A stretch of 64,000 nt of DNA from a phage: the sequence record OZ346228.1, one strand, 5' to 3'. Under the pieces are notes generated by a model. That model searched no databases, was not told the origin of the DNA, and saw nothing but the letters and a program-made list of their open reading frames with translations. This document shows, one piece after another, positions 3,211 to 62,897 of the stretch. Position 1 is the first letter of the stretch; every line of letters begins with the position of its first letter. The position numbers were made by a program, and so were the translations under genes.

Positions 3211-3582
3211 ATGTTAGTAAAAGGTACTCACACAGTCAAACAACGTATCGAAGTTGAGATCGATGACTGCGAGCTGAAGCATATTTTACGGTCATGTTCC
3301 AACGTTTTGCTCCTTAGTATTCTCCAGGAGCGAGCGGAGAACGAGTTCTTAAATGCACTGGCAGGCCGCCCTGGTGATTTCTGTGTGCGTAAGCGTGGTG
3401 ACAACAAGTCATGGCTGTGGGAGATAGACGCAGAATGGGATTACCATAAAAATGAGGGTATAGATGAACCTATTCGTGAATTGACGGACAACGAGGTTCA
3501 GATGTACAATGAAGTTTGTCAGTGGGCAAAAAGTCAACAAACTTATCTTGATCCTTGGTGGATGATCGAAAATAGTCGTTGA
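3211..3582 (+). CDS. hypothetical protein
   Basis: RBS gaggaggt before ATG at 3211 (MLVKG...). Confidence 0.55.
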   Translation: MLVKGTHTVKQRIEVEIDDCELKHILRSCSNVLLLSILQERAENEFLNALAGRPGDFCVRKRGDNKSWLWEIDAEWDYHKNEGIDEPIRELTDNEVQMYNEVCQWAKSQQTYLDPWWMIENSR

Positions 3583-56023: not shown

Positions 56024-56785
56024 TTAAAGTTCCATAAAGTTTTCTACAGTTTCAATAAATGCTTTATCAGAGAAAGCGTCAACAGCACCGTTAAACCATA
56101 CAGGGATCCCGCGATCCTCATATTGATAAAGGTCGCTACGTGAAATGCCACTCCCATCTGCACTCTGCGAGTCATACTTGTTTACAATCAGCAGTTTTGT
56201 GCCTTTACAAGTAGCAGGAAACAATTCCCAGTTAAAATTAATAACTGTGTTAGAACAACCTACTAGGATCACCATATCATTGCTTGTGAGAGATGTCAAC
56301 AGGTCATACATGTCTGTATACTTAGGAGCAACCTCACCGAAGAACACTACATTGGGCTTAACCCAGGTATACTTGCCTGTATCTACCTCCGTGTATCCGA
56401 TATTTTTAATTACATCATTACCTTCAGCATCTTCGTAGGTGATTTCAGGCAAATACCCGTGGACATGTAAAATATCTTCATGTTTTACACCAGCACGCTC
56501 CAGCAAATCATCTACATTGGTGGTAAGGTTGATCACACGACCAGACCAGCGGGAATACCACTCAGCGATCCGAAGATGTGCAAGGTTAGGATCAACACTG
56601 CCCAGAGCTACACGACGTGCATTGTAAAAGTCATGCACCTTATAGTAGTTCTTGGCAAAGGTGTGGATGTTGCACACCTCATCGATGCTGAAATTCTCCC
56701 ACATTGCAGTGCTACCAGATCGGAAAGTGGGAATACCAGATTCAGCGCTCAAACCAGCACCGGAGATAATAATCAGTCGTCGCAT
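56024..56785 (-). CDS. Sir2-family (sirtuin-like) NAD-dependent protein
   Basis: N-terminal GAGLSAESGIPTFRSG matches the Sir2 NAD-binding signature. Confidence 0.7.
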   Translation of the reverse strand: MRRLIIISGAGLSAESGIPTFRSGSTAMWENFSIDEVCNIHTFAKNYYKVHDFYNARRVALGSVDPNLAHLRIAEWYSRWSGRVINLTTNVDDLLERAGVKHEDILHVHGYLPEITYEDAEGNDVIKNIGYTEVDTGKYTWVKPNVVFFGEVAPKYTDMYDLLTSLTSNDMVILVGCSNTVINFNWELFPATCKGTKLLIVNKYDSQSADGSGISRSDLYQYEDRGIPVWFNGAVDAFSDKAFIETVENFMEL

Positions 56786-56793
56786 AAGTGTCC

Positions 56794-57144
56794 TCAGTAG
56801 ATGTTTTGTTTAATCTCTATTCCAAACTTCTTGAATGAGTCAGCAGCAAGCATAAATTTACGAGCTGCCGATGGATTAGAAGTATGCACGAAAATAATCA
56901 CGTTGTCAATAAGTGGTGGCTTTCCGAATACAAGTTTCTCCTCTAGCGCAGAGAAGCAGTCGTACCCTTCAAGCACTTCACCTAGATCATTGTCAAAATA
57001 CCACTCAGATACGCGTCTGTAGAGCTTTCTCTTATCATTAAGAAAATCCATAAACTCAGAAGAATTCTTTAGCCACAGAGCGTCTGGGAGTCCATAATCT
57101 GACGGATCTCTAAAATCATCAAGCCACACAATCCACTTCTTCAT
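56794..57144 (-). CDS. hypothetical protein
   Basis: ORF overlapping RNA ligase stop. Confidence 0.45.
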   Translation of the reverse strand: MKKWIVWLDDFRDPSDYGLPDALWLKNSSEFMDFLNDKRKLYRRVSEWYFDNDLGEVLEGYDCFSALEEKLVFGKPPLIDNVIIFVHTSNPSAARKFMLAADSFKKFGIEIKQNIY

Positions 57145-58076
57145 TGCATATAGTCCTCGTTGTGGAAATAGTAGTCCAGTATCTCACGACGCTCCTGCTC
57201 TAATAAGCAATTCCACACATCTTCTGTATAGTTGCTACGAATAAATTTTACCATACCGTAAAACTCTTCGTCAACACGTTTAAAGATATCATCATCCCAA
57301 ATCTTCCAAGCTTTACCCCTCATTACTGCCTTCCGTGCCAGATAGTATGGAGACTTGATCTTCAGCTGCAGATCATAAGGGTAGTAAGGCTTACGAATCA
57401 TATACCCTTCACCTCTTGTTTCTGCAGCTAATTCTTTTGCATAGCTGAACGGAATTTCACGCACAGTGTTAGGACGTTTTGCACCAAGGTATTTGGCAAT
57501 CCCATCTAAAGCTGCTTCTGGTAGCATTATTCCAGAATCATTATATCTGCAACCTATCAAATATGCGCCATGGTCTTCTTGAACAATATGCGGATCTGAA
57601 GGGTGACAAATTTCAAACATGAATGTCATGTTTTCATTGCCCATAACCTTCTTGATAAGATCTAAATTACCACATTGCTCTTGGATGGTTTCCTTTGCAA
57701 GGTTACAATATGGAGAATCAAGAGACCCGGTTGTTGAGAACAATAGGTCACCTTTATGAGATGATACCACACCAAGGAATCCGTTCTTTTTCTCTACCGC
57801 AGTCACAAGCTTATTGTCAGGCAGGTTGGTGGAGTTTTCTCCCAAGTTAAACACTTTTGTGAAGGGCCATGCCACAACATTTCCTTCATTACCTACAACA
57901 ATGCCTCGGCACTCCAGTAAACGAGGGGACAAATGCCATAAATTGTTGTAAAATACTTTTCTAGCATATTTATAGATCTTTAACCCGAGATCTGGGTAAT
58001 ACCTACTGGTTACAAGACCTTTGTCAACTAGGTCGTCTGCATTAAAATACTTCATTATATGTTCCTCATTTGTCAT
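57141..58076 (-). CDS. RNA ligase, T4 Rnl1-like
   Basis: LLECRGI, KVFNLGEN, motif I EKKNG, motif IV EGYMIRK, motif V LQLKIK colinear with T4 RNA ligase 1. Confidence 0.8.
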   Translation of the reverse strand: MTNEEHIMKYFNADDLVDKGLVTSRYYPDLGLKIYKYARKVFYNNLWHLSPRLLECRGIVVGNEGNVVAWPFTKVFNLGENSTNLPDNKLVTAVEKKNGFLGVVSSHKGDLLFSTTGSLDSPYCNLAKETIQEQCGNLDLIKKVMGNENMTFMFEICHPSDPHIVQEDHGAYLIGCRYNDSGIMLPEAALDGIAKYLGAKRPNTVREIPFSYAKELAAETRGEGYMIRKPYYPYDLQLKIKSPYYLARKAVMRGKAWKIWDDDIFKRVDEEFYGMVKFIRSNYTEDVWNCLLEQERREILDYYFHNEDYMQ

Positions 58077-58118
58077 TTTGTCAGTCTATCCTGCCACACA
58101 AATAACCTAGTGTCAACA

Positions 58119-58147
58119 CTTGAAATTAACAAAACAGTTAGGTATAC
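58119..58147 (+). promoter_or_regulatory. sigma70-type promoter in divergent intergenic region
   Basis: TTGAAA, 17 nt spacer, TATACT. Confidence 0.6.
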
Positions 58148-58176
58148 TACCGTTGAAATTAAAACGGAGGGTCGCT

Positions 58177-58587
58177 ATGTCTAAAATGCTATATATCGTG
58201 CGTGGTCTACCAGGGTCTGGCAAATCAACACTGGCAAATGAGCTATCTTTAGAGGGTCTGTATCCACATTTTGAGAACGACATGTTCTGGTATGACGATG
58301 ACGGCAATTACAACTGGGATGCAAGTAAAGTAACACTCGCAGCAAAATGGTGCAAAGATAACGTAGAAGATATGATGCGTATGGGATACGACCGTATCGT
58401 GGTAAGTAATACGTTTACAAAAGAAAAACATGTGCAGGAATATGTTGACATGGCAATCACTCACGGGTATAGTTATACCGTGATCGTGGTTGAAAACCGC
58501 CACGGTAATAAAAGCATTCATGATGTTCCAGACAAGGTTGTGGATCGTATGGAACGCCAGCTTAAAAACTGCATTAAACTTAAATGA
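58177..58587 (+). CDS. P-loop polynucleotide kinase-like protein (T4 Pnk kinase-domain-like)
   Basis: RBS ggaggg; Walker A GLPGSGKST; N-terminus parallels T4 Pnk MKKIILTIGCPGSGKSTWA. Confidence 0.6.
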   Translation: MSKMLYIVRGLPGSGKSTLANELSLEGLYPHFENDMFWYDDDGNYNWDASKVTLAAKWCKDNVEDMMRMGYDRIVVSNTFTKEKHVQEYVDMAITHGYSYTVIVVENRHGNKSIHDVPDKVVDRMERQLKNCIKLK

Positions 58588-58594
58588 GGAATGT

Positions 58595-59149
58595 ATGAAA
58601 TACTTTGTAACAAGCGACACACACTTTCTCCACCAGCGGGTCATGGAGTTTGATTCATGTCAAAAACACAGATCTCAGTATGATCACAATCTTGACAGTA
58701 TGAATGCAGGAATCATCGCCGAGTGGAACTCTGTTGTGTCACCTGCAGACACTGTGTTCCACTTGGGAGATATTGCGTGCACTAATGATAAGAATATCAA
58801 CAACTTACTTCCAGATATTCTAAATATGTTGAACGGACATATTATTCTTGTTCGTGGCAACCATGACACAAGGACGACTGTCAGAATTATGAAAGAGTTC
58901 GGTCATGAGGTTGTAGATTATTACGAGCTTCGCCACAACAAGAATTTGATCTGTATGAGCCATTACCAGTTTGCAAAGTGGAACAGAAAGCCTCACGGAT
59001 CAGTCCAACTGTTCGGTCATGCTCACGGAACCACACAACAGTTGTTTGGCAGGCAGCTTGATGTCGGTTGGGATGTGTGGGGGAGACTCTTACCATTAGA
59101 AGAGGCATACCGTATTGCAATGAGTTTTGATATTGACAGCAGGGAGTAA
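58595..59149 (+). CDS. calcineurin-like metallophosphoesterase
   Basis: SDTHF, GDIACTND and VRGNHD motifs; RBS gagga before ATG (MKYFVTSD...). Confidence 0.75.
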   Translation: MKYFVTSDTHFLHQRVMEFDSCQKHRSQYDHNLDSMNAGIIAEWNSVVSPADTVFHLGDIACTNDKNINNLLPDILNMLNGHIILVRGNHDTRTTVRIMKEFGHEVVDYYELRHNKNLICMSHYQFAKWNRKPHGSVQLFGHAHGTTQQLFGRQLDVGWDVWGRLLPLEEAYRIAMSFDIDSRE

Positions 59150-61997: not shown

Positions 61998-62026
61998 TTG
62001 ACAAACTTTGCTTAACAGTGTAATAT
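61998..62026 (+). promoter_or_regulatory. sigma70-type promoter upstream of tRNA cluster
   Basis: TTGACA, 17 nt spacer, TAATAT. Confidence 0.65.
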
Positions 62027-62084: not shown

Positions 62085-62159
62085 GCCCTGTTAGCTTAGT
62101 GGATAAAGCAGCGGCCTTCTAAGCCGTTGACACTGGTTCGAGTCCAGTACGGGGTGCCA
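62085..62159 (+). tRNA. tRNA-Arg (anticodon TCT)
   Basis: Manual fold: D stem GCTT/AAGC, anticodon loop CTTCTAA, T loop TTCGAGT, 3' CCA encoded; acceptor stem has two G-U pairs. Confidence 0.7.
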
Positions 62160-62163
62160 AATT

Positions 62164-62250
62164 GGGGAGTTATCCCGTAGAGGTAGCGGTGTAGACTGTA
62201 AATCTATTGTCATTGCGACTCGGGTGGTTCGACTCCACCACTCCCCACCA
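62164..62250 (+). tRNA. tRNA-Tyr (anticodon GTA), long variable arm
   Basis: Acceptor GGGGAGT/ACTCCCC, anticodon loop CTGTAAA, T loop TTCGACT, CCA encoded. Confidence 0.8.
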
Positions 62251-62364
62251 AATTTATATTTTTAGATGCATAAATAATACAGATAATGGCATTGATATTT
62301 ATCGTCGTTTATACTAGTCACTAACTGCTCGAAAATCAGTGTCATTATCAGTATTATTTATAAA

Positions 62365-62455
62365 GGAGGGTAGGGAGCAATGGTGCTCAATCGGTCTTGA
62401 AAACCGTCCCGTTGAGGATGACTCGATGATGGTTCGATTCCATTACTCTCCGCCA
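62365..62455 (+). tRNA. tRNA-Ser (anticodon TGA), long variable arm
   Basis: Acceptor GGAGGGT/ACTCTCC, anticodon loop CTTGAAA, T loop TTCGATT, CCA encoded. Confidence 0.7.
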
Positions 62456-62553
62456 CATTGTTGACCTTGTAATTAAGCGAAAGTCGGAAGCAGAACCGGA
62501 TTATCAAATGTTACAGTCGTCATCGCCGACTAGCAACATGGTCAACATACTGA

Positions 62554-62652
62554 GCTAGGTAAGCCCTTTGGCAAGGGCGAGGATTTTTAATCCTGAAAAT
62601 AGACGAGGTAGTCGTTGAATACATAGGTGGTTCGATTCCATCACCTAGCACC
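62554..62652 (+). tRNA. atypical tRNA-like gene; anticodon loop TTTTTAA (Lys-TTT-like), about 28 nt extra between anticodon and T arms; may be a pseudo-tRNA
   Basis: Acceptor GCTAGGT/ACCTAGC, D arm GCCC-TTTGGCAA-GGGC, T loop TTCGATT; variable region far longer than class I; CCA not fully encoded. Confidence 0.35.
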
Positions 62653-62657
62653 TTTTT

Positions 62658-62733
62658 GCTGATGTAGCACAATCGGTAGTGCAATTGATTTGTAATCAAT
62701 AGGTTGTAGGTTCAAGTCCTGCCATCAGCACCA
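62658..62733 (+). tRNA. tRNA-Thr (anticodon TGT)
   Basis: Acceptor GCTGATG/CATCAGC, anticodon stem-loop ATTGA-TTTGTAA-TCAAT, T loop TTCAAGT, CCA encoded. Confidence 0.8.
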
Positions 62734-62734
62734 A

Positions 62735-62809
62735 GGCCCTGTAGCTGGAAGGTTCAAGCAAGCGACTCATAATCGCCAGACGGTGGTTCAATTCCACCCA
62801 GGGCCACCA
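62735..62809 (+). tRNA. tRNA-Met/Ile2-type (anticodon CAT)
   Basis: Acceptor GGCCCTG/CAGGGCC, anticodon loop CTCATAA, T loop TTCAATT, CCA encoded. Confidence 0.8.
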
Positions 62810-62820
62810 AATAGTAAATA

Positions 62821-62897
62821 CTCCGCGTAGCTCAGCTTGGTAGAGCGCCTGATTTGGGATCAGGAGGTCGAGTGTTCGAATCACTCCGTGGAGACCA
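62821..62897 (+). tRNA. tRNA-Pro (anticodon TGG)
   Basis: C1-G72 acceptor, D stem GCTC/GAGC, anticodon stem-loop CCTGA-TTTGGGA-TCAGG, T loop TTCGAAT, CCA encoded. Confidence 0.8.

Follow-up and report, generated by a model that had tools for sequence, protein, structure and literature searches.

A conserved tRNA-like RNA with an extra hairpin module and a variable anticodon-like loop in the tRNA gene clusters of Vequintavirus and other phages

We analyzed a 64,000-nt stretch of phage DNA (sequence record OZ346228.1), here referred to as the window, which stems from an rV5-like Vequintavirus and shares 99.9% identity with phages isim and nimi over 2.2 kb. Within the transfer RNA (tRNA) operon of this phage, the original prediction, which was made from the sequence alone, placed an atypical tRNA-like gene with a Lys-type anticodon loop at 62554-62652. 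We confirmed the coordinates and features of this element and that its geometry is not that of a class I tRNA (Table 1). Our comparative analyses show that the element is a real, structurally constrained RNA gene, which combines the top half of a tRNA with an irregular lower half and with a module made of a linker (J1), an extra hairpin (V hairpin) and a second linker (J2). As the Lys-type loop is peculiar to one phage lineage, we regard the element as a probable tRNA mimic and not as an ordinary tRNA for lysine.

The minimum-energy fold of the element is a five-helix cloverleaf (-34.2 kcal/mol; z = -3.66), and 0 of 200 shuffled sequences were as stable, in agreement with the predicted folding of the acceptor, D and T arms. 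As in tRNAs, a 7/5 acceptor-T branch, a canonical T loop and a D/T elbow are present, and the second G of the D-loop GG is G19, the elbow partner of C56 in the T loop. The D arm can be extended to 6 bp with a 4-nt loop and is then similar to that of the selenocysteine tRNA (tRNA-Sec). In the lower half, the anticodon-like stem has 4 bp and a G-G mismatch, and there is no nucleotide 26 that would separate a regular 5-bp stem from the D arm. Base by base, the loop reads TTTTTAA, as had been predicted; alternatively, the hairpin has 5 bp and a TTTTA loop if U:A closes. J1, the V hairpin and J2 together form a spacer of 31 nt between the anticodon-like hairpin and the T arm. Thus, this region is indeed oversized and incompatible with a class I tRNA, but it is longer than the approximately 28 nt originally reported. 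The 3' CCA is incomplete, as had also been noticed: the element ends in A73-CC-U, while all six ordinary tRNAs of the cluster fully encode CCA, making the element the sole exception. TTTTT lies directly 3' of the CC of the element and is followed by the first base of tRNA-Thr.

Table 1. Coordinates of the tRNA-like element, its parts and relevant neighboring features in the window
Feature	Position	Strand	Remarks
tRNA-like element	62554-62652	+	99 nt, five helices; base-by-base reading
Acceptor 5' strand GCTAGGT	62554-62560	+	Partner 62643-62649; 7/7 pairs 100% paired, 4 compensatory (23 orthologues)
Positions 8-9, AA	62561-62562	+	Family-invariant A8 where ordinary tRNAs have U8 (alignments)
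D arm GCCC-TTTGGCAA-GGGC	62563-62578	+	3/4 stem pairs compensatory
Invariant single G, junction of D arm and anticodon-like arm	62579	+	Faces invariant G 62595
Anticodon-like hairpin AGGA-TTTTTAA-TCCT	62580-62594	+	15 nt versus canonical 17; 4-bp core in all members
Linker J1 GAAAATA	62595-62601	+	GAAAA core kept family-wide
Fifth (V) hairpin GACGA-GGTAG-TCGTT	62602-62616	+	In minimum-energy fold of most members
Linker J2 GAATACATA	62617-62625	+	AUACAUA invariant in 23/23
T arm GGTGG-TTCGATT-CCATC	62626-62642	+	Canonical T loop; 100% paired, one compensatory pair
Acceptor 3' strand ACCTAGC, discriminator A73 and CC	62643-62652	+	Terminal A unencoded
Sigma-70-like promoter TTGACA-17-TAATAT	61998-62026	+	Upstream of tRNA-Arg; rV5 reference annotates P(tRNA) in same short interval
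tRNA operon: Arg(TCT), Tyr(GTA), Ser(TGA), element, Thr(TGT), Met/Ile(CAT), Pro(TGG)	62085-62897	+	
Sir2-family protein	56024-56785	-	Adjoins repair set
Rnl1-family RNA ligase	57141-58076	-	Annotated as such in phage Bas48
P-loop kinase	58120-58587	+	
Metallophosphoesterase, calcineurin-like	58490-59149	+	

Using BLAST, pattern scans of IMG/VR and metagenomes, and the covariance model R1, we gathered 23 distinct orthologues from at least five phage genera in two families. They derive from Vequintavirus (the rV5 clade and the Av-05/TH18 clade), Seunavirus (PVP-SE1, 4MG, KE22 and EspYZU15), Mydovirus (Mydo and KpS8), Henunavirus (the Erwinia phages Hena1 and pEp_SNUABM_01, in which the gene is annotated as tRNA-TERM), Raoultella phage Ro1, several uncultured lineages, and the N4-like podovirus UTK0002, a Salmonella phage (Schitoviridae, Ithacavirus). 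R1 separates these members (82-124 bits) from ordinary tRNAs (≤28 bits). All copies are located within a tRNA cluster, on the same strand as the tRNAs and 2-7 nt from a neighboring tRNA, and each locus or genome region that we searched, among them ~114 kb of the 138-kb genome of phage Bas48, has a single copy. The identical 99 nt were found by BLAST in at least 167 phage records, while a capsid-protein search returned 191 phage records at ≥60% identity, which we took as roughly Vequintavirinae; we conclude that the element is present in most of these phages. A scan of 185,579 bacterial and archaeal genomes for the family pattern gave 0 matches and, thus, no evidence for a prophage or host origin. 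The Salmonella N4-like phage TR2 was considered as a second carrier outside Vequintavirinae and dismissed because its BLAST match represents flanking tRNAs and R1 finds no element. We note that approximately 18-23 of the records MG065644-MG065690 ("Campylobacter phage D1, C7, A141 ..."), which carry the label of Campylobacter jejuni phages, share 99% identity with rV5-like coliphages over the tRNA cluster, the capsid gene and the RNA ligase gene; these records are probably mislabeled or contaminant assemblies.

In the alignment of the 23 sequences, 98.6% of the cells are paired compared with 32-45% when the partners are slid by 1-3 columns, and compensatory double changes occur at 12 of the 22 pairs, including the tertiary pair 19:56. 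An earlier set of 16 sequences gave 99.4% and 10 of 22 pairs, respectively. The elbow pair 19:56 (15 sequences with G:C and 8 with U:A) is never mixed, i.e., the D loop TTTGGCAA always occurs with the T loop TTCGATT, and TTTGTCAA always with TTAGATT. This perfect covariation indicates selection for a true L-shaped tRNA elbow. De novo, RNAalifold predicted stems of 7 bp (acceptor), 6 bp (D, with a tetraloop), 4 bp (anticodon-like) and 5 bp (T), and for most members the five-helix cloverleaf is the minimum-energy fold in RNAfold. The D-stem pairs U14:A21 and U15:A20a, which are added in the 6-bp version, lack covariation support because they are invariant; A8 and U14 are also invariant and replace the near-universal U8/A14. 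Four pair types are found at the innermost pair of the anticodon-like stem (columns 30:39). Within Vequintavirus, the V stem is GACGA/UCGUU in the rV5 clade and GACGG/CCGUU in Av-05/TH18, an A:U to G:C change, and pair 4:69 also changes from A:U to G:C across the rV5/Av-05 split. The V loop GAACUAACAGUA is common to eight members, among which the V stems GCC/GGC, GUC/GAC and UCC/GGA occur. Overall, pairing and compensatory changes support all five helices. The best-conserved unpaired sequences of the RNA are GAAAA in J1 and AUACAUA in J2, showing that the "oversized variable region" is the conserved part of the RNA and the anticodon-like loop the variable part. We also inspected the sequences by eye for a kissing loop or pseudoknot between the anticodon-like loop and J1, the V loop or the T stem; complementarity seen in one clade was absent elsewhere, and this candidate was rejected.

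These data bear on two explanations raised in the original prediction, i.e., that the element is a pseudo-tRNA or a tRNA with an insertion. A decaying, functionless pseudo-tRNA kept by linkage alone would fit with the loss of the encoded CCA and the shortest V hairpin in the rV5 clade and with the deletion of the element in two isolates; moreover, sequence conservation within the genus is uninformative in this respect because the genomes are 90-99% identical overall. However, compensatory substitutions keep every helix across genera as well as within the rV5/Av-05 split (pair 4:69 and the V stem), so that the fold is maintained in 23 orthologues from at least five genera and two families. Also, the element has been kept in the tRNA-poor rV5 lineage and was gained by an unrelated N4-like phage. 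We, therefore, consider a pseudo-tRNA extremely unlikely. The idea of an insertion is not supported either: the 31 additional nt are ancestral, and no other single-stranded sequence of the RNA is as conserved as the linkers within them.

While the tRNA-shaped body is conserved, the anticodon-like hairpin is not. The loop is CCAUCCAG in nine sequences and CAUCAAA in seven; CCAGCCAG, CCCUCCAG and CCUUCCAG (6 nt if C:G closes) as well as AAUCAAG and GUGAUA occur once each, and UUUUUAA or UUUAUAA are confined to the rV5/Av-05 clade. Beyond the 4-bp core, the loop has 6-8 nt (5-6 nt where a fifth pair can close), and 0 of the 23 members have a canonical anticodon arm of 5 bp and 7 nt. U33 is present in 4 of the 23 sequences, all from the rV5 clade, and position 33 is A or C in most members. 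On one conserved body, the central triplets would, thus, specify Lys, Ile, Gly and opal. UUU together with A73 is confined to the rV5 clade, while Av-05 has UAU/U73, TH18 has UAU/C73, and the other clades have non-Lys loops and U73. U73-CCA is found in 19 of 19 distinct sequences outside the rV5/Av-05 clade, within which the 3' ends drift (ACCU, ACAU, UACA and CACA). A switch between Gly (NCC with U73) and Lys (UUU with A73) identity was also considered but does not fit Av-05/TH18 (UAU, U73/C73) and the clades with CAUCAAA; we treat this suggestive loop-discriminator pattern as ancestry and not as proof of charging.

Could the window copy nevertheless be a working lysine tRNA (UUU, reading AAA/AAG) on an unusual scaffold, which would be charged by the host lysyl-tRNA synthetase (LysRS) after completion of the CCA? 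Its 7-nt UUUUUAA loop has U33, A37 and A38, and it combines A73 with the 7/5 acceptor-T branch and the canonical T loop. Its score with the Rfam tRNA model RF00005 (35.5 bits) is above the gathering score of 29. The cluster is without any other tRNA-Lys, and AAA would fit with the other phage tRNAs, which mostly read A-ending codons (AGA, UCA, ACA, AUA and CCA). A precedent has been described (PMC11464382); by analogy to tRNA-Lys of T5 and PARIS, the altered stem, body and extra arm could make such a tRNA resistant to Lys-specific anticodon nucleases. On the other hand, this tRNA would have a 4-bp anticodon stem with a G-G mismatch, lack position 26, have A8/U14 instead of U8/A14 and a 31-nt variable region, and be the only gene of the cluster without an encoded CCA; moreover, approximately six host tRNA-Lys genes per genome already serve AAA. 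Close relatives have UAU with discriminator U or C, and in the other genera the loops are non-Lys and deviate from the canonical length. LysRS recognition depends mainly on U35, and UAU in close relatives, therefore, indicates that Lys identity is not maintained even within the clade. Thus, with a UUU loop in the rV5 clade only, UAU in the sister clade and different loops in other genera, the tRNA-Lys variant of the original prediction is not a trait of the family. For the window copy, we regard a lysine decoder as a possibility, though a doubtful one.

We also compared the element with tRNA finders, Rfam and existing annotations. A normal tRNA with different boundaries, called by tRNA-prediction tools, would have spoken against the original prediction; ARAGORN called exactly 62554-62652(+) as "tRNA-??? 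(atcc)" with a 4-base anticodon, and, run on the orthologues, it called none. The alignment of the window copy to RF00005 has a 26-nt insertion in the variable region and one deleted anticodon-stem position. For most orthologues, the top Rfam match is tRNA-Sec (RF01852) at sub-threshold scores of 23.2-39.0 bits versus 47, which reflects the extra arm, a D arm of the Sec type and, for some clades, a near-Sec loop. In the RF01852 alignments of the orthologues, the added acceptor pairs are mismatched, and the window copy fits RF00005 better than tRNA-Sec. Several other assignments were rejected. The ARAGORN fold with the 4-base anticodon (stem AUUUU/AAAAU) uses a 5' strand that is absent from the orthologues, and its GAAAAUA is the conserved linker. 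For the label "tRNA-Stop(tta)," no register yields a 7-nt loop centered on UUA, and the triplet is not conserved. As for transfer-messenger RNA (tmRNA), an ARAGORN scan of the window found none, and the sole Rfam tmRNA match in the region is a 17-bit chance match elsewhere. Finally, the Rfam searches matched tRNA and tRNA-Sec alone and, thus, neither a Y-RNA-like nor another Rfam family. In phage records, the gene is labeled tRNA-OTHER (isim and Murica), tRNA-TERM/"tRNA-Stop(tta)" (JLBYU08 and SophiaRose), tRNA-Lys (Alma, Gotham and BASEL phages, e.g., Bas48 with "codon recognized AAA") or "tRNA-???(atcc)" (slur12), and the rV5 reference has no annotation of it. Full-text literature searches for a description of this RNA found none; as far as we found, the family and the orthology of its differently labeled genes have apparently not been recognized until now. 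The element can be classified among the irregular tRNAs/tRNA-like RNAs of tRNA gene clusters, which is itself a known kind.

The Sec-like D arm, the long extra arm, U73 and the clade-specific triplets, including UAU and UCA, are also what would be expected if the element were an allo-tRNA-like irregular tRNA that is charged independently of its anticodon and acts as a missense or nonsense suppressor. The enzyme could be seryl-tRNA synthetase (SerRS) via the extra arm and U73, or cysteinyl- or glycyl-tRNA synthetase via U73 and G1:C72/C2:G71; the targets would be opal codons in the CAUCAAA clades and Lys or Ile codons in the rV5 clade. Allo-tRNAs and SelC* tRNA-Cys have the same traits, and some of them are active in E. 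coli (PMC5389517). That tRNA-Sec is the top Rfam match of most members and that the Erwinia phage records say tRNA-TERM are in line with this idea. However, the branch is 7/5 and not 8/4 or 9/3, position 33 is A or C in most members, and the loops have 6-8 nt. In addition, linkers of 7 and 9 nt part the extra hairpin from the core, unlike in the V arms recognized by SerRS. A proteome-wide Ser-for-Lys or Ser-for-Gly substitution would hurt the phage too, and many allo-tRNA(UAU) species are inactive in translation (PMC5389517). We consider such a suppressor to be quite unlikely.

The location of all copies within a same-strand tRNA cluster and only 2-7 nt from a tRNA raises the question of whether the element is a cis-acting module of the operon, i.e., a handle for RNase P/RNase E in ordered processing or an attenuator with a U5 tail, that has no function in trans. 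In the window, the T arm, the acceptor and TTTTT score as terminator-like. However, the U-run is confined to the rV5 clade, the neighboring tRNAs differ between genera, an ordinary tRNA would do equally well, and the invariant linkers, the conserved V loop GAACUAACAGUA and U73-CCA would be superfluous for such a role. In our judgment, a purely cis-acting module is, therefore, very unlikely. Upstream of the element, a Thr/Ile-like tRNA is found in Seunavirus and Mydovirus and a tRNA-Ser in the rV5 lineage and UTK0002; the rV5 lineage has kept the element even though it carries far fewer tRNAs than its Seunavirus and Mydovirus relatives.

The element is common to the unrelated Vequintavirinae and UTK0002 and lies in the tRNA clusters of both, indicating that it was transferred between phage families. 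Transfer between unrelated families with tRNA clusters supports that the element most likely works with host components and not with lineage-specific phage proteins. In two phages, V18 and JES2013, we found Tyr::element chimeras with unpaired acceptor strands, and these phages, therefore, lack tRNA-Tyr, tRNA-Ser and the element. As both were isolated as phages despite this loss, the element is accessory. In V18 (locus L045, ~855-945), the 5' half of tRNA-Tyr is joined to the 3' part of the element at a TTG..CGTTG microhomology, and in JES2013 (locus L046, ~860-930), a Tyr-like 5' part is joined to the 3' end of the element in the T arm GGTGGTTCGA-TCCA that both genes have in common. These tRNA clusters are reshaped by recombination between T arms that resemble each other. 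In the UTK0002 locus (L037), ARAGORN detected a tRNA-Ser(UGA) at 3410-3495 that is missing from the GenBank annotation, and a T-arm-like fragment, GAGTTCGAGTCTC, is present at ~3300 in an unannotated 310-nt gap after tRNA-Ile.

Approximately 4.4 kb upstream of the element, the window contains the RNA repair module that had been noted in the original prediction; we found an Rnl1-family ligase, a P-loop kinase and a metallophosphoesterase, all three of which carry these annotations in phage Bas48. The region 56024-59149 forms an RNA repair and nicotinamide adenine dinucleotide (NAD)-related block with a split Pnkp-like arrangement beside a sirtuin. The presence of a heal-and-seal RNA repair set indicates that this phage lineage is exposed to tRNA cleavage, and phage tRNAs are documented to counter PARIS and retron effectors (PMC11464382, PMC11555353 and PMC10264068). 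Homologues of Rnl1 are common in related phage groups (Pseudomonas, Vibrio and Phapecoctavirus), in which the element was not looked for; with this wide distribution, no specific coupling of the element and the repair module can be claimed. Strict co-occurrence of the element with the Rnl1 ligase was, likewise, rejected because the ligase is far more widespread.

Taken together, we tentatively favor, with slightly less than even confidence, that the element is a non-decoding tRNA mimic that matures together with the tRNA operon and interacts with a host factor that binds tRNAs. Its distance of 2-7 nt to the flanking tRNAs and its intact acceptor, T and elbow features suggest that it would be transcribed as part of the phage tRNA operon and processed by the tRNA maturation enzymes of the host. 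RNase P would generate the 5' end at G62554; at the 3' end, the precursor would be cut at the next tRNA, trimmed by exonucleases and completed by the CCA-adding enzyme. The mature RNA would then dock onto a host tRNA-recognizing protein through its conserved top half and core, and the variable anticodon-like hairpin would tune which tRNA is imitated. In the rV5 clade, the hairpin would copy the anticodon loop and two closing pairs of tRNA-Lys, and the most plausible target would be a tRNA-directed defense or toxin, e.g., anticodon nucleases of the PrrC, PARIS or RloC type. The version of this reading in which the mimic is a decoy against a tRNA-directed defense or toxin seems to us somewhat unlikely. 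We rate as rather unlikely that the element represents a new class of anti-defense RNA, i.e., a high-affinity decoy whose elbow, core and J1-hairpin-J2 module clamp a tRNA-targeting effector and whose interchangeable hairpin sets the tRNA to be imitated and, re-tooled in the rV5 clade as a mimic of the tRNA-Lys anticodon stem-loop, blunts Lys-specific nucleases (PrrC, PARIS AriB and RloC) alongside the repair module.

Several observations weigh against a non-decoding mimic. Outside the rV5/Av-05 clade, G1:C72, C2:G71 and U73-CCA are strictly conserved (19/19), a pattern that resembles selection for aminoacylation or for a use of the 3' end. The loop of the rV5 clade is fully canonical for Lys (U33, UUU, A37 and A38), and A73 completes the identity set of E. 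coli LysRS. The match of this loop and its two closing pairs to E. coli tRNA-Lys at 10 of 11 positions (GA-UUUUUAA-UC versus GA-CUUUUAA-UC; host sequence checked) speaks for a mimic, but this similarity is suggestive, weak and not statistically compelling. The loop type tracks the phage phylogeny and not the host; for instance, CCAUCCAG is found in phages of Salmonella, Klebsiella, Proteus, Cronobacter and E. coli. A stoichiometric decoy would also face competition from the very abundant host tRNA pool. Literature searches for data on expression, end mapping, charging or binding of the element RNA found none. [quoted passage not shown]

During these analyses, we made additional observations on the tRNA clusters. 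In the Seunavirus and Mydovirus loci, the tRNA directly 5' of the element also has an irregular anticodon loop (L005 1119-1194, L006 1118-1194, L008 1051-1126, L009 1051-1125 and L007 1053-1126). These loops are ACGAUUC or AAGAUUC (C33/A33, triplet GAU), the 8-nt ACAGAUCC in EspYZU15 and the 6-nt ACGAUA in Mydo and KpS8, while in 4MG the position is taken by an Arg(GCG) tRNA; ARAGORN labels them Ile(gat), ???(agat), ???(ga) and Arg(gcg). They may represent a second non-canonical tRNA family of the same clusters. An uncultured phage from IMG/VR that also bears the element (UViG_3300004634, 58-kb contig, locus L025 6275-6360) has, according to ARAGORN, an 86-nt tRNA-Cys(GCA) with a long variable arm and an acceptor, GCUAGGU.../...GCCUAGC-U, that resembles that of the element. 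Together with U73 and the loops CUGCAAA versus CAUCAAA, this hints that the element family may derive from a tRNA-Cys-like ancestor. In the window, the tRNA with the anticodon CAT (62735-62809) is given as Met in most records and as Ile (AUA, implying lysidine) in the BASEL and Alma records. The AU-rich, 114-nt spacer between tRNA-Tyr and tRNA-Ser (62251-62364) has one long, nearly perfect hairpin (-30.3 kcal/mol) and weak promoter-like hexamers inside, and part of it is a repeat_region in phage isim. The 98-nt spacer between tRNA-Ser and the element (62456-62553) has a predicted multi-hairpin fold (-23 kcal/mol) that includes GUCGG...CCGAC; UTK0002 lacks the corresponding spacer, and only 5 nt separate its tRNA-Ser(UGA) from the element further downstream.

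The gene is found, with conflicting labels (tRNA-Lys, tRNA-TERM, tRNA-OTHER, hypothetical protein or none), in more than 170 deposited phage genomes, and analyses of codon usage, suppressors or the "tRNA repertoire" of Vequintavirinae, which include therapy phages and the BASEL model phages, consequently inherit the error. The family provides a covariation-backed case in which a tRNA-shaped body is conserved and the anticodon-like hairpin is not. This unconserved hairpin, the mobility between unrelated phages and the presence in genomes with tRNA repair genes make the element a tractable candidate for a tRNA function outside translation in the conflict between phage and host; this is directly testable with the BASEL phage Bas48 and with V18 and JES2013, in which the element is naturally deleted.

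Among known RNAs, allo-tRNAs and SelC* tRNA-Cys share with the element family the Sec-like long D stem with a tetraloop, the long extra arm and varying anticodons, including UAU and UCA; U73 or G73 is the discriminator in allo-tRNAs, and U73 is also found in most element members. These tRNAs are defined by an acceptor-T branch of 8/4 or 9/3. Some of them have five-stem junctions and some do not function in translation; roles as suppressors and/or regulatory RNAs have been proposed (Mukai et al. 2017, PMC5389517). By contrast, the element has a 7/5 branch with full pairing and covariation, and instead of a 7-nt anticodon loop with U33 it has a short irregular hairpin and a V hairpin between two invariant, purine-rich linkers. 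Allo-tRNAs are mostly from bacterial genomes and soil metagenomes, whereas the element family resides in tRNA clusters of enterobacterial phages. The window copy is also similar to E. coli tRNA-Lys(UUU) and T5 tRNA-Lys (PMC11464382) in its nearly identical loop, two closing pairs, A73 and the 7/5 branch and, for T5, in the location in a phage tRNA cluster and the presence of tRNA repair enzymes in the phage. It differs from tRNA-Lys in the 4-bp stem, the lack of U8/A14, the 31-nt variable region, the unencoded CCA and a UUU that is not conserved in orthologues. In bacterial tRNA-Sec (RF01852), the D arm likewise consists of 6 bp and a 4-nt loop, the anticodon stem follows the D stem without an intervening nucleotide, and an extra arm is present; the anticodon loop CUUCAAA differs from the CAUCAAA of several element clades at position 33 only. 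However, the element has a 7/5 branch instead of the 13-bp 8/5 branch, U73 or A73 instead of G73, and A33, and UCA is found in some clades while the window copy has UUU.

Two further comparisons concern RNAs outside translation. Species 1 and 2 of phage T4 (rnaC and rnaD), like the element, are small RNAs of unknown function within a phage tRNA cluster; we take them to be co-processed with tRNAs, with rnaC presumably ending in a T-arm/acceptor-like module. They differ from the element in size and architecture, and R1 gave no match in T4 70908-71171 (rnaC/rnaD), with only T4 tRNAs scoring (≤25 bits); based on this search and sequence inspection, we rejected homology. mascRNA, the tRNA-like RNAs of murine gammaherpesvirus 68 and tRNA-Other of Bacillus cereus are matured by RNase P and the CCA-adding enzyme, are non-decoding and have largely unknown functions. 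Like the element, they fold into a cloverleaf whose acceptor/T half is conserved and whose anticodon arm is degenerate or shortened, but they are unrelated in sequence and host, and none has the J1-hairpin-J2 module. The element may be the phage equivalent of allo-tRNAs and a counterpart of the T4 species 1 and 2 RNAs, which have long lacked an explanation.

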